Positions 24,422 to 43,396 of a stretch of 64,000 bases of DNA are shown here, piece by piece. The notes under the pieces were generated by a model, which was given only the letters and a program-made list of their open reading frames with translations, did no database searches and had not been told where the DNA came from. The stretch is from Candidatus Bathyarchaeota archaeon (GTDB lineage Archaea > Thermoproteota > Bathyarchaeia > Bathyarchaeales > Bathycorpusculaceae), in the NCBI GenBank assembly GCA_963770935.1, contig CAVYRJ010000001.1:160001-224000 (forward strand), written 5' to 3'. Made by a program: the position numbers and the translations under genes. Positions within the stretch are counted from its first letter, which is position 1. Each line of letters opens with the position of its first letter.

Positions 24422-24500
24422 TGGCGGGCCCGCTGGGATTTGAACCCAGGACCTCCGGCTCCGCAGGCCGGTGTCATAATCCGTACTAGACGACGAGCCC
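24422..24500 (-). tRNA. tRNA-Arg(GCG), intronless, CCA encoded
   Basis: Reverse complement GGGCTCG...CCGGC-CT-GCG-GA-GCCGG...CTGGG-TTCAAAT-CCCAG-CGGGCCC-G-CCA folds as a cloverleaf. Confidence 0.96.
24480..24500 (+). repeat. att site, left copy (TCCGTACTAGACGACGAGCCC)
   Basis: Identical to 43376-43396; corresponds to nucleotides 1-21 of the tRNA-Arg. Confidence 0.93.
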
Positions 24501-25195
24501 CCAGCACTGGATTATGCTACAAATACGAAACAGAGATAATAAAAACGTTGCTTACGATGCGGAGCAACGGATTGAAAGAAGGCACACTTAGAGCAGTCAA
24601 CTATCAGCTAAAATACTTAGACAGAAATGCAGACCTAAAGAACCGTGATGAAGTGAAAGTGTTTATAGCATCGATGAAGCAAGCAAACAGCTACAAGCAA
24701 TGTGTGGTTAAAGCATACAATTATTTTGCAGACACAAATGGAATTAATCGCATAGAAACTCATTTCAAATACCAAAGAAAAATTCCATTGATACCTTCTA
24801 GCGAGAATGTAAATAAAATAATTTCAGCATCAAGCAAAAAATACGAAACCATATTTAGAATATTAGACGAAACCGGTTTAGAAGAACAAGAACTAAGAAA
24901 CGTCACACGAAACGACATAGACACCGAAAAAGGGATAATAAACGCTCAAGGATGCAAAAACCACAAATCACGCTCATTCAAACTAAAACCAGAAACTGCA
25001 GAAATGCTAAGACCTTACCTGTTCAAGTATTCAGATTTTCGACCATTTCCAGAAACGCACTACATGAGCGAAATATGGGCGAGAACAAGAAACAAGTTAG
25101 CAGATAAACTGCAACAACCAGAACTCAAGAAAATACCGCTGAGAAATCTTAGACACAAATTCGCAACACTTACCTACGATAAAACTAAAGATTAG
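24480..25195 (+). pseudogene. Tyrosine recombinase/integrase, C-terminal part of a split gene, truncated
   Basis: IFRILDETGLEEQEL (box I-like, Arg position altered), GCKNH, IPLRNLRHKFAT (box II-like); stops at TKD* before the expected LGH...Y nucleophile. The track's N-terminus (24389-24479) is antisense tRNA. Confidence 0.85.
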
Positions 25196-25199
25196 CCTA

Positions 25200-26328
25200 C
25201 AGTATCAAACCAGGAGAAGAAGGACGTATAGTATGGATTCAAAATCGAACATCTATGTTTGACGTAGCACAGGGACCACAAATATACAAAGACGGAATCT
25301 ATTGGAAAGGCGACCAAGCAACATTAAAATGGTCATACTACGATGCTACAACAGGCAATTACTTGGGTGATACTGAACCAATCGATAATGGCTTAGCCAT
25401 CTATTCAATGTCAGGACGATCCGTTCTAGCCTACAACAACCTCTACAGCACAGGCTACGACGGGTATGTACGTGCGTGGAATCAAACAGGAGACAACATA
25501 TGGCAATGGTACGCTGGAAGCGCTGGATACGATACACCATATGGTTCATGGCCACTGCAGGGATCATACACTGGCCCAAAGGCAGCTGATGGAAAGATTT
25601 TCGTTGCAAACGGCGAACACACCCCAATGAACGAGTTATGACGAGGCGGCAGACTTTACGCAATAAATGCAACAACAGGAGAAGAAGTCTGGAGCATATC
25701 AGGAACACAGGCTGAAGCTTCTCCAATGGGAGTAGCTTGGGGCACTCTAGTTTACCTCAACGGATACGATGGAAAAGTGTATTGTTTTGGAAAAGGACAA
25801 AGCAGCACTACAGTTTCAGCGCCTCAAACAGCCGTAACACTCGGGCAGCAAATAGTGATAACTGGAACAGTTATGGATCAATCGCCAAATCAAGAAAACA
25901 CTCCAGCCATATCAGATGAGAGCATGAGTGCTTGGATGGAATACCTACACATTTAACAACCGATTCCCACTAATGCCACAGGAGTTGAAGTAACACTAGA
26001 TGTGATCGATTCCAACGGAAACTTCAGAAACATTGGAAAAGTTACATCCGACATTACAGGTTCTTATGGCTATACATGGCAGCCTGATATTGCGGGGCAG
26101 TATCAGCTCATCGCTACGTTCGCTGGATCAGAATCTTACGGTAGTTCGCGTGCACAGACCTATTTCTCTGCAGTCGATGTCCCGCAGGCGACACCTACTT
26201 CTCAGCCAGTGCAAGTTGATATGGCTACTCAAGCTGACCTAATGCTCTATGTCGGCGCTTCTACAATCGCTATAGTTTTAGCAATAGCTGTGACCGGAAT
26301 GCTAATGATCAGAAAAAGAACTAATTAG
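25200..26328 (+). pseudogene. C-terminal remnant of a PQQ-like beta-propeller surface protein
   Basis: Fragments GYDTPYGSWP...ADGKIFVANGEHTP / YDGKVYCFGKG...PAISDESMSAWMEYL / IDSNGNFRNIG...FAGSESY + TM + RKR tail; in-frame stops at ~25639 and ~25954; 5' half replaced by the integrase. Confidence 0.88.
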
Positions 26329-26613
26329 CAATTAACCGTTCCCTCCTTTTTTTATTTAAACTTACAACATATTCGATAGGCGTTGACATTTCCATTATCG
26401 CCAAATCGGGTATTTTGCTCAAGCACTTATTCACGAAAGTCCGATCAAAAGTAATCAATCGAATTTTCCTCCACACATGGGGCATTGTTTCTTTATTGTG
26501 TTTGAAGGTGTTGGAAGTTGGAAATTAATAATCCTGCTAAGTAAGAAGCGCCTAATTAGTGAATTAGAATAGGGCTTTTATAATCATTAAATAAATTATA
26601 TTGAGAACTGAAT

Positions 26614-26757
26614 TTGCCAATTTACTACACTTGCAGAAAATGCAGAAAAGACTATTCAAAAGAAGAATATTCGCATGACAAATTCTGCAAGGAATGCGGT
26701 TCATTCCTTCTGTTGTACATTCAAGAAAGAGCAGAAGCAAGCAGCAGTTCAAACTAA
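26614..26757 (+). CDS. Zinc-ribbon peptide, probably the frameshifted N-terminus of the downstream exonuclease
   Basis: TTG start: MPIYYTCRKCRKDYSKEEYSHDKFCKECGSFLLL...; overlaps ORF 26694 in another frame. Confidence 0.55.
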   Translation: MPIYYTCRKCRKDYSKEEYSHDKFCKECGSFLLLYIQERAEASSSSN

Positions 26758-27848
26758 CTCAAACTGCTCCTCCTGAAAGGTTTGCGCTACAAAGAGCGGC
26801 TGAAAGCCTTCGAAGTAGGGTAGGGCGCTCAAGAGATTATGAGGTAGTGCCTGATGCAGAAAAGGAGCAGTCAAAGGGACCTTCGTTTGAGAGTTGGATG
26901 TGGAACTCCGAATTTGATGAAGCATTAAAACTCAAAAGGGTTGTCATGAAAAAATACAAGGGCAAAGACTTGGAAGATGTCATTCCGGGTAAAGTGGTTT
27001 CAAACGAGCAGGGGGAATGCTATGCTGTTTCTGCTTCCTGCACTTCAAACTTCAAGAAAGCCACCTATGAAGATAGTAGACGGATAATAATTTCTGACCT
27101 CAAAGTTCTTTCTGGAATAGGACCTGTTCGAGAGTTGGCACTTCGGGAGCAGGGTTATAACACGATTGAAGACCTTTTGAATCATCCGATTTGGCAAGAT
27201 GAAGCTCGCAAATTCATGAAAATCGTGGACAAGAAAGATGTTGATTTAACCCAGAGGTGGCTTTGGCAACGACTGCCTAAATCCCATCCTTTTCTTCACT
27301 ATTTGGCTGGGTTTTGTCAGGATCAAGATTTTGCGATAATAGACATTGAGACTTTGGGGCTTTCTGAAAGACCCATAATTCTGTTGGGTATTGCTAAAAT
27401 AGATGGAGATAGAATCTGCACAAGCCAGTTTCTTCTCAGGGATATTCCCGATGAGCCTGGAGCTATCTGGGCGCTCGTCTCACAACTTGAACCTAAATCG
27501 TCACTGATAAGTTACAATGGTAGAAGCTTCGATATTCCATACATAAAACAGAGGCTTGCATACTACGGTTTAGATTCAGCTCTGGACAATACCCATTTTG
27601 ACCTCCTTCATTTCGCCAGAAGAGCACTGCGACCCAAGCTTTCGGATTGCAGGCTTGACACGGTTGAAAAATACATCGGCATAAGAAGAGACATCAACAT
27701 TCCAGGCGCGTTAGTTCCCCAATTCTACGAAACCTACCTAAAAACCAAAAACGTCGGACCACTGGTTCCCATAGTTGAACACAACAAACAAGACTTGCTA
27801 ACACTCGGTAGCTTATTCTCCAAACTCTATGAGGAATGGAACCTTTGA
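26694..27848 (+). CDS. YprB/MrfB-like RNase H-fold (DEDD) exonuclease with HhH motif
   Basis: LSGIGPVRE (HhH), IIDIETLGL, SYNGRSFDIPYI, HFDLLH, HNKQDL. Confidence 0.88.
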   Translation: MRFIPSVVHSRKSRSKQQFKLTQTAPPERFALQRAAESLRSRVGRSRDYEVVPDAEKEQSKGPSFESWMWNSEFDEALKLKRVVMKKYKGKDLEDVIPGKVVSNEQGECYAVSASCTSNFKKATYEDSRRIIISDLKVLSGIGPVRELALREQGYNTIEDLLNHPIWQDEARKFMKIVDKKDVDLTQRWLWQRLPKSHPFLHYLAGFCQDQDFAIIDIETLGLSERPIILLGIAKIDGDRICTSQFLLRDIPDEPGAIWALVSQLEPKSSLISYNGRSFDIPYIKQRLAYYGLDSALDNTHFDLLHFARRALRPKLSDCRLDTVEKYIGIRRDINIPGALVPQFYETYLKTKNVGPLVPIVEHNKQDLLTLGSLFSKLYEEWNL

Positions 27849-30097
27849 TCGACGACTTCATCAAGAACATTAAGCAGATGCAGTCCTACAAGAAACAAAT
27901 CGTCCATGTCCAAAAAATTGCTGCTCAAAAAGCAAGCTTTGGCGAATTGGAAAAACCGCTCCCAGAAAACATCCATAACTGCCTACTTAATCGCGAAATC
28001 TCTTTCTACTCGCATCAAGCTGAGGCAATAAACAAAGCACGGCAAGGCAAGAACGTAGTCATAGTTACACCAACTGCATCAGGGAAAACCTTAGCCTTCA
28101 ACATCCCAGTCCTTGAAGCTCTAACAGAAGACCCGAAAGCAACTGCACTATACCTCTACCCCACAAAAGCGCTAACAAACGACCAGCTAAAAGTGCTAAA
28201 AGAATTGGAGAAAGAAATAGGAATCAAAGTATCCCCAAACATCTACGACGGGGACACTCCGCAAAGTCAAAGAGCAAGCATCCGCGAAAACTCAAAAATC
28301 ATTCTAACCAATCCTTATGGTCTGCATCAGTATTTGCCTTGGCATTATAAATGGCGGACTTTTCTGCAAAACCTAAAATTCATAGTAATAGATGAAGCAC
28401 ACGTTTACCGAGGAGTCTTCGGCTCCAACGTAGCCATGCTCCTCAGACGGCTAATGAGAATATGCAGCTATTACCATGCAGAACCCCAAATCATACTCTC
28501 ATCAGCAACTATTGCCAATCCAGAGGAACATGCCAAGAAATTAACTGGAAAAGACTTTGAAATTATCTCCAAAGACGGTGCACCGAAAGGAAAAAAGACA
28601 TTCATGTTTTGGAACCCACCATTCATCGATGACAACAATACAATTCGCCGATCCACCCACCAAGAAACCAAAGACCTCTTAACTCTTAGCATTCTGAAAA
28701 ACCTTCAAACTCTATGCTTCACCACATCAAGGCAAATGGCTGAACTCATAACAAGATGGACCAAAGAAGAACTTAGAAAGAGGTCACCAAAACTTCAAAA
28801 CGCAATTACTGCATATAGGGCAGGCTATCTCCCACAAGAGAGAAGACAAATTGAAAACCGACTAAAATACAAAGAATTAATCGGAGTTGTCTCAACCAAT
28901 GCTCTTGAACTTGGAATCGACATAGGCTCCTTGGATTCAGTGATAATCTCTGGCTATCCAGGAACAGTCATATCCACTTGGCAACAAGCTGGACGTGCAG
29001 GCAGAACCGAAGCAGATTCACTGGTTACTCTTGTTGCTTTTCAAAACCCACTTGACCAATACTTCATGAAACATCCAGAAGACTTCTTCGGACGACCGCA
29101 TGAACAAGCTATAATCGATCTGCATAACCAGTACATCTCTCTTGGGCACATAATGTGCGCTGCCAGCGAACTCCCAATAACTGAAGATGACAAAAGATTC
29201 TTCCCAGAACTCTTTTCAGAAAGCATCCAAGCATTGGAAGAGCAGCATCTTGTCAGAAAAACACCCAGAGGATATGTCTACTCAGGAACCGCAAGACCCG
29301 TTGAAGTTGTCAGCCTTGAGAGCATATCCGACAAAACTGTAACTGTCCTTGCCAATGGTAGCGTACTTGAAACGTTAACGCTAAACAAGGCCTATGAAGA
29401 AGTGCATGCGGGCGCAGTTTTGCTGCATCAGGGAGAAACCTTCATTTCCGAAGAACTCAACCTCGAAGATTTAACAGCAAAGGTCAGGCAGGAAGACGTT
29501 AACTACTACACAGAAGCACTGAAAACAGTCGATGTAGCCATAAAGAAGACCTTCGAAGAAAAACAAGACAAGGTCAAGATCGGTCTGGGAGAATTAACCA
29601 TAACCGAAAACTACCACCAATATATCACAAAAACCTACGATGAAATAATCAAGCGACAACCACTCGATTTGCCCCCGTTAACGTTCACAACGGTCGGCAT
29701 GTGGTTCTTGATTCCAGACAAACTCAGAGAAGAACTCGACGCCCAAAACCTCGATTTCGACGGCGGACTTCATGCGGTTGAACATGCGATGATAGCTATG
29801 TCGCCGATATTTGCCATGTGCGACAGATGGGACATAGGCGGATTATCAACGCCCCTTCACCCAGACACCGGAGAACCAACAATCTTTATCTATGATGGGT
29901 TTGAAGGAGGAATCGGAATATCAGAGAACCTCTACTCAAACATTAAACCACTCTGGGAAAAGACTTTGAAATTGATTGAAAATTGCGAATGCAAAGACGG
30001 ATGCCCCTCATGCATTTACTCACCAAAATGCGGCAACGAAAACGAACCACTAGATAAAAAAGCTGCAACTATCATCCTAAGACACTTAACAAGCTGA
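27836..30097 (+). CDS. YprA/MrfA/Hrq1-like DEAH helicase with DUF1998 zinc domain
   Basis: TPTASGKT, DEAH, SATIANP, STNALELGIDIG, QQAGRAGR, IYDGFEGGIG, CECKDGCPSCIYSPKCGN; overlaps the exonuclease stop. Confidence 0.95.
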   Translation: MEPLIDDFIKNIKQMQSYKKQIVHVQKIAAQKASFGELEKPLPENIHNCLLNREISFYSHQAEAINKARQGKNVVIVTPTASGKTLAFNIPVLEALTEDPKATALYLYPTKALTNDQLKVLKELEKEIGIKVSPNIYDGDTPQSQRASIRENSKIILTNPYGLHQYLPWHYKWRTFLQNLKFIVIDEAHVYRGVFGSNVAMLLRRLMRICSYYHAEPQIILSSATIANPEEHAKKLTGKDFEIISKDGAPKGKKTFMFWNPPFIDDNNTIRRSTHQETKDLLTLSILKNLQTLCFTTSRQMAELITRWTKEELRKRSPKLQNAITAYRAGYLPQERRQIENRLKYKELIGVVSTNALELGIDIGSLDSVIISGYPGTVISTWQQAGRAGRTEADSLVTLVAFQNPLDQYFMKHPEDFFGRPHEQAIIDLHNQYISLGHIMCAASELPITEDDKRFFPELFSESIQALEEQHLVRKTPRGYVYSGTARPVEVVSLESISDKTVTVLANGSVLETLTLNKAYEEVHAGAVLLHQGETFISEELNLEDLTAKVRQEDVNYYTEALKTVDVAIKKTFEEKQDKVKIGLGELTITENYHQYITKTYDEIIKRQPLDLPPLTFTTVGMWFLIPDKLREELDAQNLDFDGGLHAVEHAMIAMSPIFAMCDRWDIGGLSTPLHPDTGEPTIFIYDGFEGGIGISENLYSNIKPLWEKTLKLIENCECKDGCPSCIYSPKCGNENEPLDKKAATIILRHLTS

Positions 30098-30139
30098 CTT
30101 TCATTTACGCTAAAGCAACAAAAAAGAGGGCTATCTCAA

Positions 30140-30328
30140 CCTGAAACGATTTTTCCACTTAGCATAAGAGGTGTCAAAGAGGTTTTTCCAGGGTTTGCGT
30201 TGAGTGATTTTGCAGTTCTGCAGGGTTCGTCTGTTTTGCCTTTGGCATCGTTGTTGTGTGTGAAAGCGCAGCTTCCTCCTCAACTCGGCGGATTGCAGAG
30301 CAGTATTATTTTTATCGATTGGGGATAA
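30140..30328 (+). pseudogene. RadA/Rad51-like fragment with degenerate Walker A
   Basis: VFPGFALSDFAVLQGSS...SLLCVKAQLPPQLGGLQSSIIFID resembles the Rad51/RadA LCV..QLP...GG...IFID segment. Confidence 0.6.
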
Positions 30329-30478
30329 AATAAAATCTCGAATTTAAAGTCGCTTTTGGGCGAGCCTTCCAGAAGCATTATTGCTTCACTTTTAACGCTC
30401 TTCTACTGTAATTCAAAATCTCTGACTAGTTCATTAGTTCGTCTTACTTAATACAATCCCCGAAGCGGAAGAACAGAT

Positions 30479-30802
30479 ATGAGCACAGCTGACACTGAGA
30501 AAGACTCTGGGAAAGAGGTTTGTTGTGAATATGCTACAGCTGTGACTGGTTTAGGCGAATTTGAATTATGTATTCGCGAGTGCGGCAATCAAACTTGTCC
30601 TCAATCTATTTTTTCTAATCCGGCAATCTACGAAAGATGCCCACAGCGGTTGAAGTACAAAAAAGACGGCTTGATTTTGAATCAAAGTGAACCGAAAAAG
30701 GTTTTTGTTCACGTTCACTCAAAACAAGAGTCTGTACCGAAATTCACCGGTATGAACTGCAACGGCTGCCAATACAAGGCTGGTTCTTATTGTTGGGGCT
30801 AA
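30479..30802 (+). CDS. Cys-rich hypothetical protein
   Basis: 107 aa with CC, CxxxCxxxxC and CNGC motifs. Confidence 0.55.
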   Translation: MSTADTEKDSGKEVCCEYATAVTGLGEFELCIRECGNQTCPQSIFSNPAIYERCPQRLKYKKDGLILNQSEPKKVFVHVHSKQESVPKFTGMNCNGCQYKAGSYCWG

Positions 30803-30847
30803 TGCACAATGAACATTTGGAAAAGAAAACCTGATTGGTGAGGGTTA

Positions 30848-31070
30848 ATGAGTAAGGAAAAAAGCGTATCTTTGCAGTGGATGATGTGAATATTTTGAGA
30901 ATTTTTAGGAGTATTTTGAAAAAGAAGGATACGTAATTGATACGGTTGAGACCGGTAAAGATGCCCTTAAGAAAATCGAAAGGAGAAGTTCAACGTGTGC
31001 TTAGTTGACGTTAGGCTCCCTGACATGGAAGGAACTGAGCTTCTCCTCGATATGGCAGAGTTCTTTTACT
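30848..31070 (+). pseudogene. Response-regulator receiver (REC) domain remnant
   Basis: Across frames: KRIFAVDD..ILRIFRSIL / KEGYVIDTVETGKDALKKI / FNVCLVDVRLPDMEGTELL. Confidence 0.75.
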
Positions 31071-31969
31071 TCGGCAATCCAACAAGTATGCGGCACAAAG
31101 CCTAAAGACGAATCAACCATAAAACTCACATGGCTATTTCTCTAATGACTTTAAGAAGCAAGGCGTTGAAACGACTAACACCCGTAATTGAGAGATAGTT
31201 AAAAGTGGAAGGCTGAGGAGCTGACGTTTCTTAGAAATACGTGTTAGCTAACAAGATGACTAATCTAAAAGAAAGCACCATAACGAACAATTTGAGTTAT
31301 TGCTCAAATCCTACATGCCTCAATGGGAACAAAGCAAACAAGAACTCAACAACGGCATTCTTAGTTATTCTGAATGGGCAGAGTAGACTTAGACTCTTGC
31401 TCCACAATGGGGACACTTATCTGCCGTCTCTTTGTAAATATTCTTGCAGTAGGCTCAGCTATTTTTAGTTAAATATTGGCAGTTATTAAATAAAGCAAAA
31501 CTCAAAATTACACGTTTCGGGCACTCAATGTAAGACAAATTAAGAACCAAGTGCTATATTATTTAGGTGAATATTTTTGCGTAAACAACACAGACCAGAA
31601 GGATCGACAACCTCCTCTCCAAACAGGAGCAGTATAGCAAGAAAAGCAAATGCCGCCAATAGTTCGAGACAGAAGCAAGCCAACGATAATCGTTCGAGAC
31701 AGACTCAAGCCGATAATTCAAAGAAGTAAAACAGTATTTTATACTTCTAAATTAAATTTTAATGCGTGGATTGAATATACTGTAATGAAACGGTTATGCG
31801 TTTTCGGCTTAGGCTGTCTACGGTTACTTCAATTCATTTTTTGTGATAGGAAGACTTAAAAAAGCAAGTCAACATAAAACTAAAGGAGAGAAAGTTTTTG
31901 GAAAAAACAGCGACGATTTATTCACTCTTGACTTTTTCGGCGTAGCTTTTTTGATTTTGGTGAAAACAT

Positions 31970-32146
31970 ATGAAAGATTTTAAGTGCCCAATATGTAGTG
32001 GGTCAACTGAAAAGATTTGGGAAAATGCAACCAGAACAAGATACGGAATGAGATGTACGAAAGGCCACAATAAAACAGGTGGCAAATCAGAGGGTTCAAA
32101 AGAGTACCCCACATTTCTTGTTCCAAGTGAAGAACTTGGTAAGTAA
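31970..32146 (+). CDS. 58-aa zinc-finger microprotein
   Basis: MKDFKCPICSG...MRCTKGH...; GGTGA RBS-like site upstream; below the track's length cut-off. Confidence 0.6.
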   Translation: MKDFKCPICSGSTEKIWENATRTRYGMRCTKGHNKTGGKSEGSKEYPTFLVPSEELGK

Positions 32147-32253
32147 AGAAACTTAGATTCTTTCTTTTTTGTTATGGGTACTAAAATTTAATTTGAACCA
32201 CACCTAAAACTTTTTGAAGGCTAAAGTTGTTTATTTGACAAGGATAAATCTTG

Positions 32254-32418
32254 ATGGATAAAGCTAAAATTAAAGATGAAATGTGCACGTGTGGGCATCT
32301 GAAAAGTGAGCATTCGTATTTTTTAGATAGAGTATGTACTAAACCTAAATGTGAATGTTACAAGTTCGTTTTGAAGGACGAAGAACAAAAGCCTAATTTT
32401 TTAGATTCTGTGTGCTAA
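32254..32418 (+). CDS. 54-aa Cys/His microprotein
   Basis: MDKAKIKDEMCTCGHLKSEH...CTKPKCECYKF (CxCGHxxxxH...CxxxxCxC). Confidence 0.65.
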   Translation: MDKAKIKDEMCTCGHLKSEHSYFLDRVCTKPKCECYKFVLKDEEQKPNFLDSVC

Positions 32419-32477
32419 AGCATGAAGATAGATAAACTAATAATCGCTTTGAATGATACTGCTAAGAGGTTCAATAA

Positions 32478-32834
32478 ATGGTAAAAATCAATCTGTTGAC
32501 CTATTTGACTTTCAATTTGAACATGCTCGTTGACAAAGGAAAAGGTATGACGATAAAAGAGACCAGGCAGTTATGCGAAAAAAGAACAATACTTCGAGAG
32601 TTGCAAGAGCGATTTCCTTTTGCAGAAACACACCTTGACTTATCATTACTGAAACTGCAGCCAGATGCTGAAGAAGAAATTGAGAATATTTTTTACGATA
32701 TGGCTACTTCATTAAAAGACAGCGAAATGCTTGTGGGAAACAACGGTTTATGTCTGTTGATTGCATACGCTCAAGAACAGATTCAAAGAGAAGCAAGAAA
32801 ACTTGAAGAGAAAAGAGACGACGAAAAAGTCTGA
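32478..32834 (+). CDS. Hypothetical protein (N-terminus possibly at 32422 via a frameshift)
   Basis: 118-aa ORF with protein-like composition. Confidence 0.55.
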   Translation: MVKINLLTYLTFNLNMLVDKGKGMTIKETRQLCEKRTILRELQERFPFAETHLDLSLLKLQPDAEEEIENIFYDMATSLKDSEMLVGNNGLCLLIAYAQEQIQREARKLEEKRDDEKV

Positions 32835-32883
32835 TAGCCTAAATCTTTTTCTTCTATAAATCCTATCTTTGGACGATACTAAA

Positions 32884-33018
32884 ATGAACCAAAAATGCCC
32901 CCGATGCGGAACCACAACAACACAAGGCTTGATTTATGATAAGGTACACAAGAACTTACTATGCCAAAAATGCGTGAAAAAACAAAACCCAAATTTTAAG
33001 GTGCCCCCTCGCAGGTAA
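32884..33018 (+). CDS. 44-aa zinc-finger microprotein
   Basis: MNQKCPRCG...LLCQKCVKK. Confidence 0.55.
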   Translation: MNQKCPRCGTTTTQGLIYDKVHKNLLCQKCVKKQNPNFKVPPRR

Positions 33019-33109
33019 CGTTTGCCGGGTGTTTGTCTGGAGTCAAGAGAGAACTTATTAGCTCACTCACAGAGATAGTGGTTACAACCTCAATTGAAAG
33101 AGGCTTGTC

Positions 33110-33236
33110 TATGGCTAAACAAATGGGTTTGAACATGAAAGAAACAAAGAACGGCAACGGTGCTAATCTTGGTTTTGAGGCGAAACTCTGGACAGCAGCC
33201 GATAAAATGCGCAATAATATGGATGCTCCAGAATGA
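33110..33236 (+). pseudogene. Type I R-M methyltransferase (HsdM) N-terminal stub
   Basis: GANLGFEAKLWTAADKMRNNMDAPE* is the canonical HsdM start; the rest is absent. Confidence 0.8.
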
Positions 33237-33682
33237 TGCCTTGAGTGCAAGCAACGTTTTGGAAAAGTAAAAGTCGGCGAAAAAGTATTCTGTCCGGATG
33301 GGACAGCTCATTTAGTCGATATTTAAGATCGTTTTATCTAATCTTAAATGGTTTCAGATTTTCATTTCATTTTTTTTACTCCCAAAACATTTGCCCTTGC
33401 CTTCTATTTGGTCTACGGTGCATTCGCTTGGTTCTTTATCGAAAATAGCGGCTTATTAGTTAAATGAACTCATTTTCTTTAAAAAACTTGGCACTTACTT
33501 GCTTTAAGATGAATGCGAGCAGTGGCGTCGAATCTAATTGTCTAAACCGCAAAATTATGTATAATAGGTACACCTTTCTTATAGTTAGAGTGCGAGGATC
33601 GCATTATCACTTTTCTAAGCCGCTAAAGCGGGATTTAATGATTCAGTGACGATTCTGGGCAAGTAAATTTTGAGGTGGAAAA

Positions 33683-34663
33683 ATGAGTATAACCCAAGTG
33701 AGTAGAACAAAAGAAGCCCCAAAAACGCATCATCACTTAGCTGATAAGTGCCCAGAATGCGCAAGCAATAATCTTGTTCACGATTACGACACGGGCGAAA
33801 CCATCTGCGGTGACTGCGGTCTTGTTTTGTATGAGCAGATGTTAGATAAGGGACCTGAATGGCGCGCTTTTACTCAGGAAGAGAAAGCATCAAGAAGCCG
33901 CGTTGGAGTTCCCACTTCATATTCAGTTCATGACAAAGGCTTATCTACAACCATCAGCCAAGTGGACCGCGATGCATTCGGAAGAAAACTTCCCCTGTCC
34001 ACTAGATTGCAAATGTGGCGTCTTAGGAAATGGCAAATACGCAGCCGAGTCCACTCATCCAGCGACCGAAACCTTGCACAAGCAATGGCTGAACTTGACC
34101 GTTTATCAGGCAAAGTTTCCATCTCACCACCAATCAAAGAAAAAGCCGCTGTTATTTACCGCAAAGCATTAGACAAACACTTAGTCCGAGGAAGATCAAT
34201 CAACTCCATCGCTGCTGCCGCGCTGTATGCTGCTTGTCGTAAGAGCGGAGCACCAAGAACCCTTCGCGAAATCGCTAAAGCCAGTCTAGTGGATAAGAAA
34301 GATGTTGCACGCTGCTATAGGCTGCTGCTGCAAGAGCTCGATTTTCACATGCCAACTACTGACCCGTTGACGTACATTTCAAAAATTGCAGAAGAAAATG
34401 GAGTATCTGGCAAAACACAGGGGGCTGCCATAGCTATACTTGGGGAGGCTAGACGAAAACGAGTTGTAGCGGGAAAAGATCCTATGGGCATGGCTGCAGC
34501 TGCACTCTACATAGCTTGTGTCCAGAATAACGAAAAAATAACACAAAAAGAAATCGCAGAAGCCTCTGGAGTCACTGAAGTTACGGTTAGAAACAGATAC
34601 AAGGCACTAAAGAGGCAGCTAAACCTCGAAATACCCGATCAAAGAGAGATGACAGCAAGATGA
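33683..34663 (+). CDS. tfb: Transcription initiation factor IIB paralog (element-borne)
   Basis: CPEC...CGDCGLV zinc ribbon, GPEWRAF, two cyclin folds, GVTEVTVRNRYK. Confidence 0.96.
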   Translation: MSITQVSRTKEAPKTHHHLADKCPECASNNLVHDYDTGETICGDCGLVLYEQMLDKGPEWRAFTQEEKASRSRVGVPTSYSVHDKGLSTTISQVDRDAFGRKLPLSTRLQMWRLRKWQIRSRVHSSSDRNLAQAMAELDRLSGKVSISPPIKEKAAVIYRKALDKHLVRGRSINSIAAAALYAACRKSGAPRTLREIAKASLVDKKDVARCYRLLLQELDFHMPTTDPLTYISKIAEENGVSGKTQGAAIAILGEARRKRVVAGKDPMGMAAAALYIACVQNNEKITQKEIAEASGVTEVTVRNRYKALKRQLNLEIPDQREMTAR

Positions 34664-34931
34664 GTAAGAAAGGAGAAACAGGTGAGCAGGATCGGGGAAA
34701 GCCTCAGCCTCGAAAAAAGAAGGACAGGGAAGATGCTCGCAAGAAGAAGAAACTCGACAGAGTTGAAAGACAAAAATCAAGATTGGCTTAAATAAATTTA
34801 GAGTTAGACATGGAGATTTATTATTGTCTGACGCTGCTCTGTCATTTCTTCGGTTGATTGACTGTTTGTGTGTGGCTAATACTTTTCGGGGTGTGATGAT
34901 TAAACTAAAAACATATGATATATTTAGAAAC

Positions 34932-35414
34932 CTATGTAGGTTCAATCCACGATATATCATGTCCACCTTGCAAGTAATTATGTCTCCAAACAATTTCTGC
35001 AATAGTAAAACTCCAGGTACAATGTCCCTCGGCATCCAAATGATGTATTAGTTGTATAGAAGTTTCATCGATTTTTACAACAGGCATTATGTGCCAACCC
35101 TGACCATTACCCAGAGCTAACGAAATCAGGCAAGGTTTTTGCTCTTCTAAGAGAGATTTGATACGGTTCACTTTGTCTATTCCCTTGGTAAAACTCTGTA
35201 CTTTAATATTGATTTTAGGATACACACTTCTAATCTTCTCTGAAACAGAGTCAAAACCATTATCTTGCCCCAAGTCAAAATCCTCTTGAAAGGTCTCAAG
35301 ATGCACTCCTTGAATCTTCAAATATCGAATTAGCCACTCATAGCCTGTTGGAATACAGCCAGATTCATGACGTTGAGGAACCACAGTTTTGGACCAGTTT
35401 GATAATTGTGCCAT
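34932..35414 (-). CDS. Papain-like (C39-like) peptidase domain protein
   Basis: PQRHESGCIP (Q...C), KPCLISL, GWHIMPVV (catalytic His context). Confidence 0.6.
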   Translation of the reverse strand: MAQLSNWSKTVVPQRHESGCIPTGYEWLIRYLKIQGVHLETFQEDFDLGQDNGFDSVSEKIRSVYPKINIKVQSFTKGIDKVNRIKSLLEEQKPCLISLALGNGQGWHIMPVVKIDETSIQLIHHLDAEGHCTWSFTIAEIVWRHNYLQGGHDISWIEPT

Positions 35415-35557
35415 TTGTTATCAGAACGGTATAGGAAGTAATAGCAACTTAAGACTTTTTACTATCGTTCTGAATCAGATTTTTCCATTTGTTTTTTCCT
35501 TCTATCGTTATTTCACATGAGTCACGAGGGGTTTTCCATCCTGAGATTGAAGTTAAA

Positions 35558-36646
35558 TTATTGAAAGTTATGAATCCGAGGTCTTGGAACGAACTGCATG
35601 GAAACGGTTATTCGTTTTCTGCTGAGGCTGCCCCTAGGTCATTATTTATTCTTGTGTTGCCCTTTCCTTTGCTGGCATGTCCAAATCGTGTTATTTTCCA
35701 GTTATTCATGTTTCCGCGTATAATCTGAGGGTTGCTGGTTAAGATGTAGAAGGGAACTTTGGTTTGGGAAGTGTAGAGTTCAGCTATGAAGTTGAGGAGT
35801 CGTTTGCCTACGCCGATTCCTTGATAATCAGGTAGCACGACTAATCGGCTGACTCGATAGTATTTTGCTTTCATTCTCACGCAGGCAACAGCTATGAATG
35901 CCACAGGTTTCTCTTGATAGACTGCAGTATAGCATCTGACTCCTGCACCGAGGGAGCCGTTTAGATAGTGATATTGCCGAAACATCTTCCAAAGGTTAGC
36001 GCCGCACCGATAGACTTTGGAGTTCAACGGGCGGCCGACTTCTTTTTTTCGGTCTAAACTCCATTGTGTCTGTGCAGAAGACCCAGTCTGGATCCAGCCA
36101 ATCCACAACATCATAGTGGCAGGTTACAGCAATGAATTTCTTGGAGACTTCTACGAACTGCTTTGCTGATGGCAAAGGCGCTGACTTTGGCAATCTCCCT
36201 ATCCACGACAGAGGTAAACTCATCGAAAACCACTAAAGGCTTATCTAAGCATAGCGCACGGGCGATGTCAACCCGCATCTTCTCTCCTTGGCTCAAACAA
36301 TCATACGCTTTCAGCCAGTCCGGCGGAGAAGCGAAGCCGACACTACAGAGCATTTTTGTAATCGCATTCGTTTCAAGTTCTTGGGGAAAGTCATCTAAGA
36401 CGCATTTGCTTTTGTATTCAAAACCACGTATGTAAGCTTCTGGAAAAAGTTGTTTGGCTATGCTTGTTTTGCCTGAGCCGCTTCGCCCAACTATTACGCC
36501 TATTTGCCAATCAAAATCCTCCAGAGGCAAAGAGCCTTTAAAACGCTTCTCCAATTTGACATCTGAAAGGGTATAGCTGCCGACCACGCTCTGTGATCTA
36601 AAACTATCAGATTCTTCCCATCGCTTTACAATGTCAAAATCCGTAG
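35558..36646 (-). CDS. ABC-type ATPase fused to Mom-like GNAT acetyltransferase (three +1 breaks)
   Basis: GRSGSGKTS, LSQGEKMR, VFDEFTSVVDR / FIAVTCHYDVVDWLDPDW / WKMFRQYHYL...RVSRLVVLPDYQGIGVG / RKRITVSMQF; ORFs 36111-36587, 35996-36223, 35608-36114. Confidence 0.82.
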
Positions 36647-37183
36647 CTTATATCCCCCTCCAATCTTAGCTTCTCATACTTGGCTTTCTGATCGGCTTCG
36701 TCTCTGCACTCTACAATTATCTCGTAGGTTCCAGGAATCGAAAAAGAGATGTCACGGTCATCCACCTCGATCGGGAGCCTTCTCACCTACGGATTCGAGG
36801 AGCGCCTTCAAATCTTCCTTTTCGCCTAGCTCAACTATGCGCAAGTATTCGGCACTGTCCAGCTCTTTGTTGTGTTTTCCTCTTAGCTTGTTTAGCACCT
36901 GCCTTAGCAATCGGCGGTCAACGTCTTTAATGGGCAAGCGGATGACGCTGCACTCGGTCATGCCAAGCTCTTTCATAGCGGTAACACGCTGCTGTCCATC
37001 TGCCACCAAAAGCTCACTGTTAGTGACGACGGGAACGATGTCTCCCCATCTTCTAATTGAAGCTTTCAATCGGTCAAGTTGCGCAAGGCTCATTCTGTTG
37101 GGATTGTCTTGGTCAAACTTGAGGTCGCTGATTTTCACGCGTTCCGACATAGGAATCGGAATTTCTTTTTCAAGATCACTCAT
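36626..37183 (-). CDS. ParB/Srx N-terminal domain protein (phage type; two +1 breaks)
   Basis: ISDLKFDQDNPNRMS...LKASIRRWGDIVPVV...VADGQQRVTA...LNKLRG; tail YEIIVECRDEADQ...EGYKLRILTL* after correction; GGAGG upstream of ATG 37183. Confidence 0.82.
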
Positions 37184-38176
37184 TCCGCTTTTTCTCCTCC
37201 ATTTTCTTGTTTTAAACCCATTAATGAGCGCCTCCCGCTCCTCCGGATGCGCTTCATAGTACTCCTTAATTTTACGTGAAATAAACTCGTCATGGAACCC
37301 TTCAAAAATCTCAAAACTCTTCTCAGTAAATACTCCTTCAGGATAGATTGCTTTTATTTTGGCGTCTACTGCGTCCCACCAGGCATAATCATCAAACGCG
37401 GGGTCATCCTCGTTTCGGTTATTGTTGTATTCATAATCTTCTATCAGGCAATCGTGGTTGAATTTCTGCATCTCATGGAAGAACCACAGAACCCTGAGCA
37501 TAACTCGTGGGTCTTCGCCTTTGGGGTATGCGGCAGCGAACCATTTATAGACTATTCGTTCTAAGCGGTAGCTTAAAAATTCGTGTGATTGTTCAAGAAT
37601 GGCGTTTTCCTGGTCTGTTAGTTGGCTTAGAAGCTGTTTGGCTGCCTCGTTTTGCTGTTCCGGACTTGTTGCCGCTGTTTATTATGGCTTGTGCGTCGTC
37701 TTTGAAAGTTGCTCTTATTTTTTGTGCGTGGTCATGCAGGAGTTGTTCGTCTAAGTCGCCTATATGGAGCATTATGTCGTCGTCTTCTGGGGGAAAGTCT
37801 AAAATGTTGTCCTCTAATTGGTGGAGTTTACGGCTTAACACATTCATCAGAAACCCTCTCCTATCCCTTTCCGTTTTTGTTTTTTCGCCATCAGGTTGCG
37901 GTTTGGGAATCAGTATGCTGTTTTTTAGCTTCTCCTCTAAGGCTATCACTCTGAACTCTAACTCCTCGTCTTTGAGTAGGCTGCCGTAGGTTGAGACGGC
38001 TGAAACCATAACCCTTGCCCAGCCTTGTTTTGCTTTGTCGCTGTTTCCAGCGCATGAATTTTTTTGTGGGAGAGGCTTAAAACGCCGTCTAAAACGCGAA
38101 ACAACGTATTTCTGCGGTCTTTAGCTGAACGGTTTGATGACGGTTTCTTATCGGTTTTAGCTTCAACTTCACCCAA
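37180..38176 (-). CDS. Two hypothetical phage-like genes fused or broken by frameshifts
   Basis: ORFs 37958-38176, 37593-38009 and the first part of 36758-37501 are co-oriented and abut the ParB gene. Confidence 0.45.
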
Positions 38177-38357
38177 GCTTTATTTGCCTTCCTAAGTTTG
38201 GCTCCAACACCAATGGAGAAAAGACACCGCAAAGCGAGTTAGCTCTCAAGACAACACAAAACAAGACAACGATTTCCATATTGTTAATTTGAAGATAAAA
38301 GACTTGCGTTTAAGATCCAAGAGATAATTTTATAGAGTAAGATCAGCTAAAGAGGTA

Positions 38358-39143
38358 TTGGACTGCAGTGTGGAAGATAGAACCTTATCTTTATTATGCA
38401 ACTCGTGTGGTACTTTGATTCAAAAAGATTATTGGGAGTGCCCTCATTGCAAAGCTCACTATTGCTATGGTTGCGGAAAGGACTTTCAGGTTCTCCTAAG
38501 AAATCTCATCCCCTGCTGTCCTGCATGTAACTTAGAATTATTTCACCAAACAACCGCTGAACCCTACAAAATAGCAGAATCCCCATCTTCTATGCCACTG
38601 TTAAAAAACAAAAGTTCTACGGTATCAATTGCAGAGACCAAGGTCGAAACAGTACTGCAACTGGGTATTAGAAAAGAATCAAAAAAGCATGCCGAGGCTG
38701 AGATAGAAGTTCAGTTCTACCGTCCAATCCCTGATACTCAAAAAGTTCTTAATTACCTTAAAACGGCTAAGATAAGAAATATCAGGAATAAACAACATCT
38801 ATTTCAAACGCTATCAAATATCTTTAAAAAAGACCCAGAGCGCATAGAAGAACTGTGGTATGAACTAGAAAGAACTAATCCGATTTTAATCCGCCTAATT
38901 ATCTCAAAATTTAAGGATGAAGTTCTAAAGCAGCAATATAAAAGAGCTAACTATGAGGCTCTTCATCCTAAGCATAGGAATGCCTTGAATGATTCTGAAG
39001 TCATCTCTCCGCCGCACAGAGAAGAAGTCAACTTGGATTTAAAGAATGTAAAACCGATAGATGGCGTCGAAATTGAATGGAAACAAGGGAAGATGTCAGC
39101 TGTCGATCAAAAGAACTACAGAAGCAAATTTGATGAACAATAA
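38358..39143 (+). CDS. Hypothetical protein with N-terminal RING-like 8-Cys domain
   Basis: CNSC-x10-CPHC-x4-CYGC-x14-CPAC. Confidence 0.65.
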   Translation: MDCSVEDRTLSLLCNSCGTLIQKDYWECPHCKAHYCYGCGKDFQVLLRNLIPCCPACNLELFHQTTAEPYKIAESPSSMPLLKNKSSTVSIAETKVETVLQLGIRKESKKHAEAEIEVQFYRPIPDTQKVLNYLKTAKIRNIRNKQHLFQTLSNIFKKDPERIEELWYELERTNPILIRLIISKFKDEVLKQQYKRANYEALHPKHRNALNDSEVISPPHREEVNLDLKNVKPIDGVEIEWKQGKMSAVDQKNYRSKFDEQ

Positions 39144-39414
39144 AACTCTTATGTGTTTTTCGTCTGTAAGTTCTATATGCCTTTTACACTCAATGCAGTT
39201 GATTAGTTTCAACAATATCTCTTGAATTAGATGAACCCTCAACGAAATCCATTAAGCACGAAAAGTTTAATCTATTTAGCAACAAACTGTCGCGCGATTC
39301 TTTTTCTTGGACACAATTTGGTATCAGGGCGTTCTTCTTTTGCCAATACACTATAATCTTCTCGATTGGAGCAAAAAAGGGGAAGTGAAGTGCTATGAGG
39401 TTTTTGTTAATGGA

Positions 39415-42031
39415 TTATGGTCGTTTTCGGAGCATCAGAATTATTACTATTCCGATTACTAAGATTGCGATTATCGCTGCTGCGCCCAAGCCTAAAACGT
39501 ATGAGTCGGTCATTGATTCCGGTGCTGATGTTGGTGCGGGAGTGGACGAAGGAGCTTCTTCTACGTATATGGCGGTTTCCGCATTGGAAGACCAGTAAGA
39601 CTTAGAACCAGCAAAAGTAGCAATGATAGTGTATTTGCCTGGAACCTCCGGAGTAAAGGCATAGCTGTATGTGCCACTTGCGTCACTAGTAGTGTTGCCA
39701 ACCTCGTAGTAATTGTTGTTCGGGTCAAGCACACTTAAAACAACCTCAACTCCTTTCACGTCAGTGGGTTTCGACTGTTGCATGTAAACATACTCCATCC
39801 ACGCACTCATATCTACGTCAGATACAGCAGGAACTCCATTTGGAAAACGTAGGTCTTGTTCAAGTTGCGTCGTGCCAGGAGAAATATCAGTTACTCTGCC
39901 TTCAATCAGTACTTTGTTGCCATGCGTTGACACCTTGGGAGATGCTGTTACGATAGTGGCGCTTGGTCCCTTGCCGAATGAATATATCTGCGCGTCAAAG
40001 AAGTTGAGTCCTAAGATGAAGCCGTCTGCGATAACTGCGGTAGTCGATGTGAGATGCCCTCCGCCAACTCCGGCTCCGTAGAATAATGTTTTAAATATTT
40101 CCTTTCCTGTTTCCGCGTCTATGCAACGAAGGTTTTGACCGCGAAATAGAGGTTGCGTTGGTGAGTGTTCACCAGTAACTGTGTATATTTTTCCGTCTGC
40201 AACGCAGAATGCGTAGATTGGATAGTCGCCGTAAGGAGATTCATAGCCAACGCCTGTTGCGGTGTAATTCCACAAGACTTCTCCGGTCTTTATATCGTAG
40301 GCAAACATTACTCCGGAGTAGCCAAAGGTTAAGATTTTGCCTTGGTAGACATAGTTATAGATGCCATAGTATTGAAAATCGGGTTCAGGGTTAGTTGGAC
40401 CCCACAGTCTATTACCCGTTTCTAAGTCGAAGCCCCAGAGTTCCTTCGTCAGTGAATTTGTATAGTAGAAAACACCATCTTCTGGTGCTACAAATGGCCC
40501 AAAAACCGCTCCTCTATACATCGATACGTAGGTTTCTATTGGTGCTACATCAAATGGTGGCGTAAAGGTATAGTTCCAAATCAATTGTCCCTCTTGCCCT
40601 GGTTTCAGGCTTAATTTCCACATGTTGCCTAAAACAAGCGGCTGACCTTCTTTGTTTACTCCTGAAGTTCCACCGATTATATACTCGTCCTCAAGAACCG
40701 CGCGGATGCTGCCCTGTACTGCCTTTGTTATCGTCACGTTCAATGAGAATGCCGTGTCCCCGTTATGAACAGGTAGCCTTTCGGGTCTCCATTGCCATAA
40801 ATCAGTTCCTCCTGTTCCTAATAGCATAGTAGGTATTGCAGATGAGTTCCAAACTTGTAAATATTGTATCCCACCTGATGTGACTAGGTTGTATCGCAAT
40901 ATGCTTCCGTCTTTACCATAGACAGCTGTACCGCCAGCAGATACGTTAGCTATTAAGGTTACCGTGTTTCCTGTGAATCCGTCAAGCATTTCCCAAGTTT
41001 GAGTACCTGACCTGACTTGTATAACCAGATGGTAAGGTGACGCCGGAGGTTCTCCATAGGTATGAGAAGCCTCCGTGCTGGTTTGGTGACTCATAGTTGT
41101 ATATCGAACCAAATGCCGGCATGGTTTTGTTGTCTAAAGATAGCGTTTCGCCTGTGTAGAGATCAACGGCATAGTAGCCCTGTATTGTTTGTGCTGTGTT
41201 ACGTGCTTCGTAGTAAAGTTTTCCTTGGATAATTATAGGGGTGAAACTAAGACCTGCGTAGTGCCCTGTCATGTAGCCTGTATCATTAAAACGAGCGTCC
41301 ATGATTCCTCCGGCAAAATATGGTTTTGTCCAAATTATGTGAGCGCTTTCTGGAGCTTGACCGAAGCTGAAACGAGTAGTTTGACCAGCCAGTGGAATAG
41401 CTCCAGTCCAAGTTTGAGCGGAGCCCCCCAGCCAGTTTCCTGTAATTTGCCACCAAGCTCTGTTGGCACTGTTTATTGGGCGAGTCCAGTATTCGGTTGG
41501 AAGAGGTGTCTCTTTCCATCCTTCTATGGGGTCAGTTTGTACAGTAATTGTTGTTGGATCGCTTGTGCTGCCAACATAAGTATCGTTGATGTATGCAACG
41601 CCAGGTTGGGTCACTATATAGGGGTTTAGAGGAAGACCTGTTATTGTGTCATTAACCATTCTTGCCACGAAAGTGTATGTGCCGACTTGATCAGGTACGT
41701 ACGTGGTGTACCCAGCGCCCACTGGATCAGATGTGATAGGTCCGAGTGTTTGTGTTGTTTCGTCAGGTTTTGTAACATCTACATAGAAGGTGAACCTGTC
41801 ACCGTAAGCGCCCCCAGCTGTGGGGGGAACGGTGTTACTAAACATGACAACCAATAGCTGCTGGCCGATGCCTACAGTGTGTGGACTAACAGCAATGTAA
41901 GTCCAGGTAGGAATCACCCACGGAGGACTATGAGCTGAAACTACCGGCAAATTAAGAAGTGGAAAAGCAATAGTCATAATCAGAAACAACGTAGTCATGA
42001 AGGCAATTGTTTTTTTCTTTGAAAATTTCAT
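39415..42031 (-). CDS. Secreted, C-terminally anchored PQQ-like beta-propeller protein, one +1 frameshift at ~41010
   Basis: Signal peptide, PLPTEYWTRPIN, APESAHIIWTKP, ESPYGDYP, ADGKIY, PAVSDVDMSAWMEY, TM + RKR. ORFs 40982-42031 and 39415-41112 join at AGTCAG(G)TCAGGT. Confidence 0.9.
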
Positions 42032-42057
42032 GTTTTTCTTTTCCTATAATTATAATT

Positions 42058-42130
42058 GACAAAAGCAAGCTTTTGAGAGGTTGCCTTGCCAACAGAAACA
42101 GATATTTTTGCTAGATGTATATTAAATTAA
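42058..42130 (-). promoter_or_regulatory. Conserved TATA + hairpin leader (copy A) of beta-propeller gene
   Basis: Aligns without gaps to 50191-50263. Confidence 0.7.
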
Positions 42131-42514
42131 CCATTCTTGAAAAGACGCCATGGGAAAATATGTAATTTTGATATTTAAATGGTTGTCATAGTGTGGAATA
42201 TCGTGTAATGCTTAGGGTTTTGAGTTTTTTCTTTCGGTTGCCGTTAAATAAAATAAAAAAATAGAAAGGCGGGAGATTTTGCCACTTTAATCTTATAGAA
42301 GCCAAATAAGACTAATATGCGAGAAGACCAGGGCCTACTTTGTTCACATAAGAAGGCGGGTGTTGCTCACCAAAATTAACAATTTTTCATAGCAGTGTTC
42401 TAAAGGTAAGACTAAACGACCTTCAAAGGTTGAGACCCGCGGTGATAAACTTCATTAACCAAACCTGTTATTGATCCTGTGATCTGTCCTAGACAATAAA
42501 TCCGACGGGTAAAT

Positions 42515-43153
42515 TCAGTTAAACCGATAGTTTTCTAAAATCTTGGCAATCACATCTTCAATTCCTTTAGGAAAAGGGACTCCGTGTACTTTTTCATCAC
42601 CCAAATAAACTAGGGAATGTTTCGGATTACCAGGAATCCACTCTTCGTATTTTGCTAACCATAAACTGAGATGGAGATCAAGTTTTTCTAGATACATTTC
42701 CAGATCATCTTTTTCTTTTTGGTTCGTTTTTAATAAATTAACGTCGATTTTTTGAGCAAGTTTTTGAATCTTCTTGTTCAAAGGGAGAAGAGCTCCTTTT
42801 GTTTGGCTGCGAATTATCAAGTGTGTTTCTTTATGTCTCGGTTTCATTTTGTCATAAAGACTTTCAAATGTTTCTTCAAACCCGACAAATTTTCGGATTT
42901 CTTCAGGAAATTGATCTTTTAAATTCTTGGCAAGTTCGTCCCTATGCTCACATTGAAGATCGAAAACACGTTTTTGAACAGTAATAAGTCTGTGCAGAGA
43001 TTTCAAATTTGAAATATTATCTGCGACAATCGCCTGGTTTACTTTTCTGCGCTCAATTAACTCTCTAACAAAATAAGCGACTGTTGCAAAAACAGCACCA
43101 ATTATTGCTGCACCCAGCCAATCTGGAAATTCTGTAAACAAAGACATTTCCAT
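42515..43153 (-). CDS. Hypothetical protein with N-terminal TM helix
   Basis: WLGAAIIGAVFATVAYFV, followed by a helical domain ending HGVPFPKGIE. Confidence 0.75.
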   Translation of the reverse strand: MEMSLFTEFPDWLGAAIIGAVFATVAYFVRELIERRKVNQAIVADNISNLKSLHRLITVQKRVFDLQCEHRDELAKNLKDQFPEEIRKFVGFEETFESLYDKMKPRHKETHLIIRSQTKGALLPLNKKIQKLAQKIDVNLLKTNQKEKDDLEMYLEKLDLHLSLWLAKYEEWIPGNPKHSLVYLGDEKVHGVPFPKGIEDVIAKILENYRFN

Positions 43154-43354
43154 AATCCATCCTGTCTCGATAATGAGACGAGAACTATCTCTTAGTATTC
43201 TACTGGGAATGAGATCTATTTAGAATTATTGATCCATTCACAGCTAAATGTAATTTTATAAAACATTTCGGGTGTGGAAAGAAGTTGAATGCGATTCGTT
43301 TATTTGACTATTTAAGGAAGCCTATAAGAAAAATAAAAAGGGAGGTTGCGGGTG

Positions 43355-43396
43355 ATGTCTCCAGAAAATGATAGGTCCGTACTAGACGACGAGCCC
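43355..43396 (+). pseudogene. Putative integrase N-terminal stub (intN) running into the att site
   Basis: GGAGG...GGTG-ATG then MSPENDRSVLDDEP, reading through the 21-bp repeat. Confidence 0.45.
43376..43396 (+). repeat. att site, right copy (tRNA-Arg 5' fragment)
   Basis: Identical to 24480-24500. Confidence 0.93.

Follow-up and report, generated by a model that had tools for sequence, protein, structure and literature searches.

DNA is the proven target of Mom, the product of a GNAT-fold late gene of phage Mu, which acts alone, takes glycine from Gly-tRNA and needs no ATPase according to the available part of PMC13219725. TmcA and NAT10 acylate an exocyclic base amine with an acetyl-CoA GNAT fused to an ATPase, and certain phage T-dioxygenases, of the Fe/2-oxoglutarate dioxygenase class, modify DNA with a ParB-like partner (as described in the accessible portion of PMC13229309). 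Most like the locus described here is a phage module, PHROG 11143, a ‘GNAT coupled with an ABC ATPase’, for which acyl modification of a DNA base has been predicted (PMC7824862, section 3.4.7 in the part available, citing Iyer, Zhang, Burroughs and Aravind 2013). We analyzed 64,000 nucleotides (nt) from a Candidatus Bathyarchaeota archaeon (contig CAVYRJ010000001.1, positions 160,001 to 224,000; ‘the window’ below means this whole stretch), in which positions 35558-38176 of the minus strand carry a related cassette. In our reading, to which we give a probability of about 0.6, a ParB-like gene and an ABC ATPase gene that continues into a GNAT through a −1 frame change form a cassette of tailed viruses that is predicted to acylate a DNA base, and the window holds a damaged member of it, whose small insertions and deletions (indels) are more likely assembly errors or very recent events than old decay.

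From 38176 to 35558 the cassette is a chain of collinear, overlapping open reading frame (ORF) pieces with shifting frames. Three pieces of its last gene, g4, lie collinearly on the phrog_11143 profile: 36111-36587 covers profile positions 31-161 (3e-41), 35996-36223 covers positions 160-209 (1.1e-12) and 35608-36114 covers positions 199-330 (8.8e-27). The first piece matched PF00005 above the cut-off (9.4e-10), and a Walker A motif (GRSGSGKT, 36465-36488), LSQGE (36282-36296) and Walker B (36216-36230) lie in it; VVFDEF and TCH can also be read directly in the ATPase, which resembles transporter-type and ABC-F nucleotide-binding domains. The third piece matched PF13508 (1.5e-08) and also PF00583 above the cut-offs and contains the acyl-CoA motif QGIGVG (35806-35823). 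Judged by these matches, the cassette is a member of the known ‘GNAT coupled with an ABC ATPase’ family, with which it shares domain order, motifs, a collinear profile match and an overlapping ParB-like gene upstream. It differs in its archaeal host, in two additional, variable small genes, in 11 indels, in an ACG codon at the ATPase start position, and in that relatives occupy the late-gene or terminase side of virus genomes, whereas the window copy has no virion genes. The GNAT itself reads as an ordinary acetyl-CoA-type GNAT, with Pfam matches limited to PF13508, PF00583 and PF13673. One related genome, from the same order, encodes ABC ATPase and GNAT as a single fused protein of 530 amino acids (aa) (L022, 1072-2664), and such ~530-aa fusions of related genomes may be a cellular form.

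The first-pass annotation, made from the letters of the window, had placed a ParB-like gene and an ABC-ATPase/GNAT gene on this strand between 35558 and 38176. The PHROG and Pfam matches and the GRSGSGKT and LSQGE motifs bear this out, and so do the boundaries, 38176 being the TTG of the first gene and 35558 the end of the GNAT stop if one takes a 1-nt deletion at 35639 into account. The supposed two-gene unit, however, consists of four genes (g1, g2, the ParB-like g3 and the ABC/GNAT gene g4).

The ParB-like gene, g3 (36626-37183, minus strand), starts with ATG at 37183, stops at 36626-36628, and encodes a ParB/Srx-like N-terminal domain, with DGQQR at 36986-37000, followed by a small C-terminal domain. 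The piece at 36758-37501 matched phrog_498, the N-terminal part of phage DNA methyltransferases (8e-20), and phrog_620 (8.8e-16); the nearest matches of the domain are the N-termini of phage methyltransferases and the ParB-domain nuclease 5k5d. A chromosome or plasmid partition ParB was rejected, as PF02195 (ParB_N) scored 14.4 bits against a cut-off of 26.3 and TIGR00180 scored 18 against 58.45. Of 160 loci, 111 have a ParB gene directly upstream of the ATPase gene. The ParB stop of the window copy lies downstream of the ATPase start position (36642-36644), so that the two genes overlap, and the same overlap is present in Streptococcus phage 315.4 and Lactococcus phage P335. A predicted complex of the ParB and ABC proteins scored 0.00, which we counted as evidence neither way.

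The frame change within g4 is a property of the family. One genome per species was scanned for related prokaryotic stretches, and the best 80 of the 173 found were kept, a set that consists almost wholly of Bathyarchaeia metagenome-assembled genomes, includes several loci per genome, and by its choice favors copies with a full ABC part. Relative to the ATPase frame, the GNAT is shifted by −1 in 76 of these 80 loci. The junction has the form xxA AAA AAA G, with a run of seven A (A7) in 73 loci, A8 in 3 and A9 in 4; the AAG synonym occurs in the run of no locus, and the register before the G is identical throughout. The 0 frame ends 27 codons past the run in 78/80 loci, and the −1 frame opens no more than 3 nt before it in 67/80. 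No start codon is conserved in the −1 frame, the first start usually lying 54-65 nt downstream and being absent in 2 loci. Across the 73 A7 copies, the wobble signal, measured as column entropy, follows the 0 frame upstream and the −1 frame from ~90 nt downstream. The −1 frame aligns with naturally fused phage proteins (phiE255 protein). This pattern makes A_AAA_AAA_G a likely programmed −1 slip site, with a short ATPase and a long ATPase-GNAT as its predicted products. The first-pass annotation had described an ATPase fused to a GNAT; because the step from ABC to GNAT is conserved in the family and is not damage, repair into one fused ORF would not give the native gene. In the window the site is the A7 run at 36043-36049, between the ABC part (36050-36644) and the GNAT part (35558-36042), and a base inserted at 36053, immediately ahead of the run, puts the downstream frame in register, so that the slip is no longer needed and the fusion is hard-wired.

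A-rich −1 recoding is known from dnaX (tau/gamma), from the tail-chaperone G/GT genes of phages and haloarchaeal viruses, and from Mg-chelatase, where slippage on the A-rich heptamer A_AAA_AAR is −1 (PMC5009743, in the part available). The ABC-GNAT junction resembles these in its in-phase, X_XXY_YYZ-type run, in the predicted pair of a short 0-frame and a longer trans-frame product, and in its retention across many relatives. It differs in belonging to another gene family and, in the window, in being overridden by the inserted base. Our literature search found the ABC-GNAT slip in no paper, and ParB, GNAT, ABC and frameshift are all absent from the text of a paper on Bathyarchaeia viruses (PMC10848311).

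Bacterial phages show the same arrangement. The ABC/GNAT topology recurs, on a T-run, in Streptococcus phage 315.4 and Lactococcus phage P335. Their records annotate the ATPase and a shortened downstream ORF separately (L001, 5489-5600, and L002, 5474-5590, respectively), and the GNAT homology begins in the −1 frame within the ATPase gene, at a GGTTTTTC run; given this position, the records probably miss a recoded fusion. Among 80 IMG/VR loci, 54 were fused, 23 were −1, 1 was +1 and 2 ended at a contig edge, and all 17 loci whose junctions were inspected had runs of A7-A11. Among L123, L150 and L141, fused versions retain ten A where the two domains meet, and one copy with A11 has its GNAT in the +1 frame. 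The gene may pass among fused, −1 and +1 states as the length of the run changes.

The module is very widespread: besides the 173 stretches of prokaryotic genomes, at least 554 IMG/VR contigs with the cassette were confirmed, and by tblastn 79 phage records contain the ABC part and 61 the GNAT part. The order ParB, ABC/GNAT, terminase recurs in Streptococcus phages 315.4 and MismyG and in Lactococcus phage P335, and in the Streptococcus and Lactococcus phages the cassette comes after the late regulator. In 20-21 of the 80 Bathyarchaeia loci, a small ORF comes after the cassette, and TerL (PF03237/PF17289) and a portal gene come next. Homologues of g1 were present in 28 of the 80 loci and a g2 of the window type in 8, so the conserved core is ParB plus ABC/GNAT. 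By its gene neighborhoods, this core is a late-gene cassette of archaeal and bacterial tailed viruses. The cassette, its place before the terminase and its slip site are common to tailed viruses of both domains, and the predicted slip offers a compact case of recoding conserved across them.

Within this cassette, the ParB-like protein would load on double-stranded DNA, the ABC ATPase would spend ATP to clamp or open the DNA, and the GNAT would move an acyl group from acyl-CoA to an exocyclic base amine; the transfer would come late in an infection, ahead of packaging, and would protect the DNA of the element against nucleases. We infer this scheme from the domain content, the obligate pairing and the companion enzymes. 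Among these companions are a formyltransferase beside the fused versions of Mu-like phage phiE255 and of Porphyromonas phages, an aspartate decarboxylase beside the cassette of phage Jace, and an ASCH protein in Streptococcus phages. The first-pass annotation had likewise proposed a DNA modifier, which agrees with the printed prediction of DNA-base acylation (section cited above); the anti-restriction role that it attached to the module is something we can only infer. The phage T-dioxygenases offer a parallel, in that a DNA-modifying enzyme with a ParB-like partner is also what is predicted for the ABC-GNAT; they differ in enzyme class. Should DNA acylation by the ATPase-GNAT prove real, acyl groups would have a second, ATP-driven route to DNA besides Mom.

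The conserved place directly before terminase and portal, from bacteria to archaea, suggests another use. The ATPase-GNAT might acetylate a protein of the virus or of its host (terminase, portal, RNA polymerase or a nucleoid protein), or else packaging might use the ParB-like protein as a DNA-recognition factor, with no base modified. The nearest folds of the GNAT do include the protein N-terminal acetyltransferases Naa50, RimI and Ard1, but structural likeness among GNATs tells little of the substrate. Moreover, phiE255 and the Porphyromonas phages carry the gene after the tail genes, next to the formyltransferase and away from the terminase; Lactococcus phage P335 has a small terminase subunit of its own; and phage DNA methyltransferases, in their N-terminal part (phrog_498), are what the ParB domain most resembles. 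We therefore consider a protein or packaging role unlikely, without dismissing it.

The combination of an ATPase with an acetyl-CoA GNAT also recalls TmcA/NAT10, and an ATP-driven GNAT of this kind could make N4-acetylcytidine (ac4C) on tRNA or other RNA during infection. TmcA (2zpa) is among the fold matches of the GNAT, at rank 43 (E 8.2e-05). In Streptococcus phages 315.4 and MismyG an ASCH gene follows the cassette, and ASCH proteins are reported ac4C erasers (bioRxiv 10.64898/2026.02.27.708502, in the part available); the gene is absent from the other 5 phage records inspected. The ATPase of g4, however, is of the ABC type and not a RecD-like helicase as in TmcA, no tRNA-binding domain was seen in g4, and its obligate partner is a ParB-like, predicted DNA-binding protein. 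The ATPase type and the low rank of the fold match led us to reject membership of the TmcA/NAT10 family, and an RNA target seems to us quite improbable.

A relationship to Mom itself is less credible still. The first-pass annotation had called the GNAT Mom-like, and a GNAT fold and late expression in phages are common to both; in phiE255 the gene even sits after the tail-fiber genes, as mom does in Mu. Yet the GNAT gave no match to PF25680 at E ≤ 0.01 in a profile search in which Mu Mom scored 2.4e-75, and BLASTP of Mom against the GNAT gave E = 74, so that the two have no detectable sequence relationship and Mom family membership was rejected. DNA is only the predicted target of the ABC-GNAT, which, unlike the solitary and ATPase-free Mom, has kept an acetyl-CoA motif, is joined to an ABC ATPase and has a ParB-like protein as its partner. 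That this enzyme belongs to the Mom family and modifies adenine as in phage Mu is, to our minds, very hard to sustain.

The state of the window copy was judged against its paralogues. The genome (1.98 Mb, 18 contigs, 91% complete) has four related copies, on contigs C1 (the window), C3, C17 and C13, and the similarity among them is confined to the cassette (window 35595-38270). The C3 copy (32058-34722; 85.9% identity to the window over 2679 nt, and 86.0% in the alignment used for counting indels) has all four genes intact, in an operon with ATGA overlaps in which g1 (at most 146 aa), g2 (220 aa) and g3 (ParB and small domain, 184 aa) precede a g4 that encodes the ABC ATPase and then, in the −1 frame, the GNAT. 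The C17 and C13 copies are partial and truncated (82.5% and 83% identity to the window, respectively). Compared with C3, the coding part of the window copy has 11 small indels, which comprise 9 insertion events and 2 deletions: six 1-nt insertions (37853, 37670, 36782, 36147, 36053, 36015), three 2-nt insertions (37217, 37197, 36654) and two 1-nt deletions (38053, 35639). The first-pass annotation had described all breaks as +1, which this comparison corrects.

Substitutions were counted on each branch as nonsynonymous to synonymous changes (N:S), with L027 as outgroup and with the dual-coding start of the GNAT (30 codons) left out. The window branch (35:75) did not differ from the branch of the intact C3 copy (57:116; Fisher p = 0.90). 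In contrast, the truncated copies approached 1:1 (C17, 40:42; C13, 16:18), and the window ABC and GNAT parts taken together (18:54) differed from C17 (Fisher p = 0.0028). With the indels removed, the window copy has no in-frame stop in ParB, ABC or GNAT, as compared with 1 stop in C17 and 0 in C13. Its indels are 9 insertions to 2 deletions, as compared with 5:4 in C17 and 5:7 in C13. Since the N:S ratio of the window copy is like that of the intact paralogue and unlike that of the decayed copies, the indels would be assembly errors or very recent. The window copy thus seems to have evolved as a working gene, and its breaks are more likely to be assembly errors or very recent events than old decay. 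Assembly errors are plausible because this repeated cassette abounds in the community, with 72-201 contigs of relatives (80% likeness) in each of four wetland, soil and peat runs. Contigs of relatives lack the extra bases of the window at 36015-36019, 36053, 36147, 36653 and 37669, a comparison that concerns relatives only and is silent on the source reads.

Several observations weigh against our reading, and some of them favor a genuine inactivation of the window copy. None of the public runs searched for the window stretch holds it (best share of words, 0.08). Among the 80 relatives, 67 are complete and 11 are broken, so real inactivation of the window copy is plausible. The cassettes of its subgroup lack virion genes, and neither TerL nor portal was found beside any of the four copies in the genome by profile and tblastn searches. 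The sole PF03237 (terminase-like) match in the genome, at C1:51128-51727 with a 290-aa open frame and missed by tblastn, lies ~109 kb upstream of the window and adjoins no cassette copy. The GNAT model (predicted local distance difference test score, pLDDT, 85.3) resembles generic GNATs only, in fold and in profile (IAA acetyltransferase, Naa50, RimI), which leaves protein, RNA and small molecules all conceivable as substrates. No member of the ABC-GNAT family from any host has been characterized in the literature searched, with neither an activity nor a substrate reported; the earlier remark that no archaeal example is characterized therefore holds, but says little. A predicted 6-bp GC stem (CCGCCC/GG-UGCGG) 8 nt past the A-run is invariant, with 0/6 pairs covarying among 77 of the 79 distinct sequences (indels led to the exclusion of L036 and L080), which leaves ribosomal and transcriptional slippage indistinguishable. 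Finally, in 41/80 loci, including the window and C3, the ATPase start position is ACG, which is no canonical start codon.

Together with the 11 indels relative to an intact paralogue, the stops and truncation of the two other, clearly decayed copies, the broken relatives and the missing terminase and portal are what one would expect if the window cassette were a genuine pseudogene cluster of a decayed provirus, inactive in the organism. We take this possibility seriously but find it somewhat doubtful: the substitutions of the window copy are as biased to synonymous sites as those of the intact copy, its three conserved domains are free of stops once the indels are removed, and its excess of insertions is not seen in the decayed copies, whose N:S is near 1:1. 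The first-pass annotation had suggested that the module might be intact in vivo; the substitution pattern supports this. The apparent frameshifts of the window are of two kinds, one junction being a native recoding site and the others probably assembly noise or fresh lesions, and automatic repair of them all into one ORF would yield a wrong protein.

At the ATPase start position, the ACG (36642-36644) lies 22 nt inside the ParB gene, where it overlaps the ParB C-terminus (..GYKLRILTL, then the stop), and a stop in the ATPase frame lies two codons upstream; the first canonical start in the window is the GTG at 36587. Provirus-type copies have ATG, TTG or GTG at this position. The ACG suggests that translation of these ATPases begins at a non-AUG codon or is coupled by some other mechanism.

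What is new here is the orphan, multi-copy and selection-maintained form of a known virus cassette. Extending our reading, one might imagine that in one Bathyarchaeia branch the cassette left the virion and persists as a multi-copy, 2.7-kb unit kept by selection, with interchangeable small partner genes and no terminase. Such a unit would serve as a stand-alone epigenetic, defense or selfish DNA-marking system of integrated elements, would be expressed through the ACG start inside ParB and the −1 slip, and in the window would be functional in vivo, its breaks being assembly errors. This extension is speculative, and we think it improbable as a whole. Terminal repeats around the 2.7-kb unit gave weak matches at chance level only, and hence no sign of a transposon.

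The four genes of the window copy carry their lesions as follows. The small, variable accessory gene g1 (37848-38176) starts with the TTG at 38176 and is spread over the ORF piece 37958-38176 and the start of 37593-38009; it has the 1-nt deletion at ~38053, and the insertion at 37853 joins it to g2 in frame. The variable accessory gene g2 (37184-37847; ~220 aa; ATG at 37847) is interrupted by the insertion at 37670, and those at 37217 and 37197 join its 3′ end to ParB in frame. Neither protein matched Pfam or PHROG; g2 also had no usable Atlas match and no similarity (E = 5) to the small ORF that lies between GNAT and TerL in proviruses. The ParB gene is interrupted by the 1-nt insertion at 36782 and the 2-nt insertion at 36654, and the ABC part of g4, which contains Walker A, LSQGE, Walker B and the CH motif, by the 1-nt insertion at 36147. 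The GNAT part is interrupted by the insertion at 36015 and the deletion at 35639, and its conserved C-terminal ..RITVS.. motif runs on in another frame to the stop at 35558-35560.

The cassette lies within an integrated element of ~18.9 kb (24480-43396), bounded by an exact 21-nt direct repeat (att) whose copies occupy 24480-24500, within tRNA-Arg(GCG), and 43376-43396. The att repeat, the tRNA gene and an integrase support the earlier placement of the module on an archaeal integrative element. The window cassette is parted from virion genes and resides in this integrase-bounded element. Outside the cassette, the ORFs of the window are long and intact. The tRNA-Arg(GCG) gene (24422-24500) is overlapped by the 5′ end of the integrase ORF (24389-25195), which is on the opposite strand. 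Other genes of the element encode an RNase H-like protein (26694-27848), a DEAD/MZB helicase (27836-30097) and a paralogue of transcription factor B (TFB; 33683-34663), of which 3 more copies, with ~79-80% nt identity, are found on contigs C16 and C4. A TFB gene, together with the named relatives of the cassette, identifies the host as a member of the Bathyarchaeia. Two adjoining genes at 39415-42031 belong to a large family of paralogous surface proteins of the PQQ/beta-propeller type, anchored in the membrane at the C-terminus, and members of this family also flank the cassette on C17, C13 and C3 and at many related loci.

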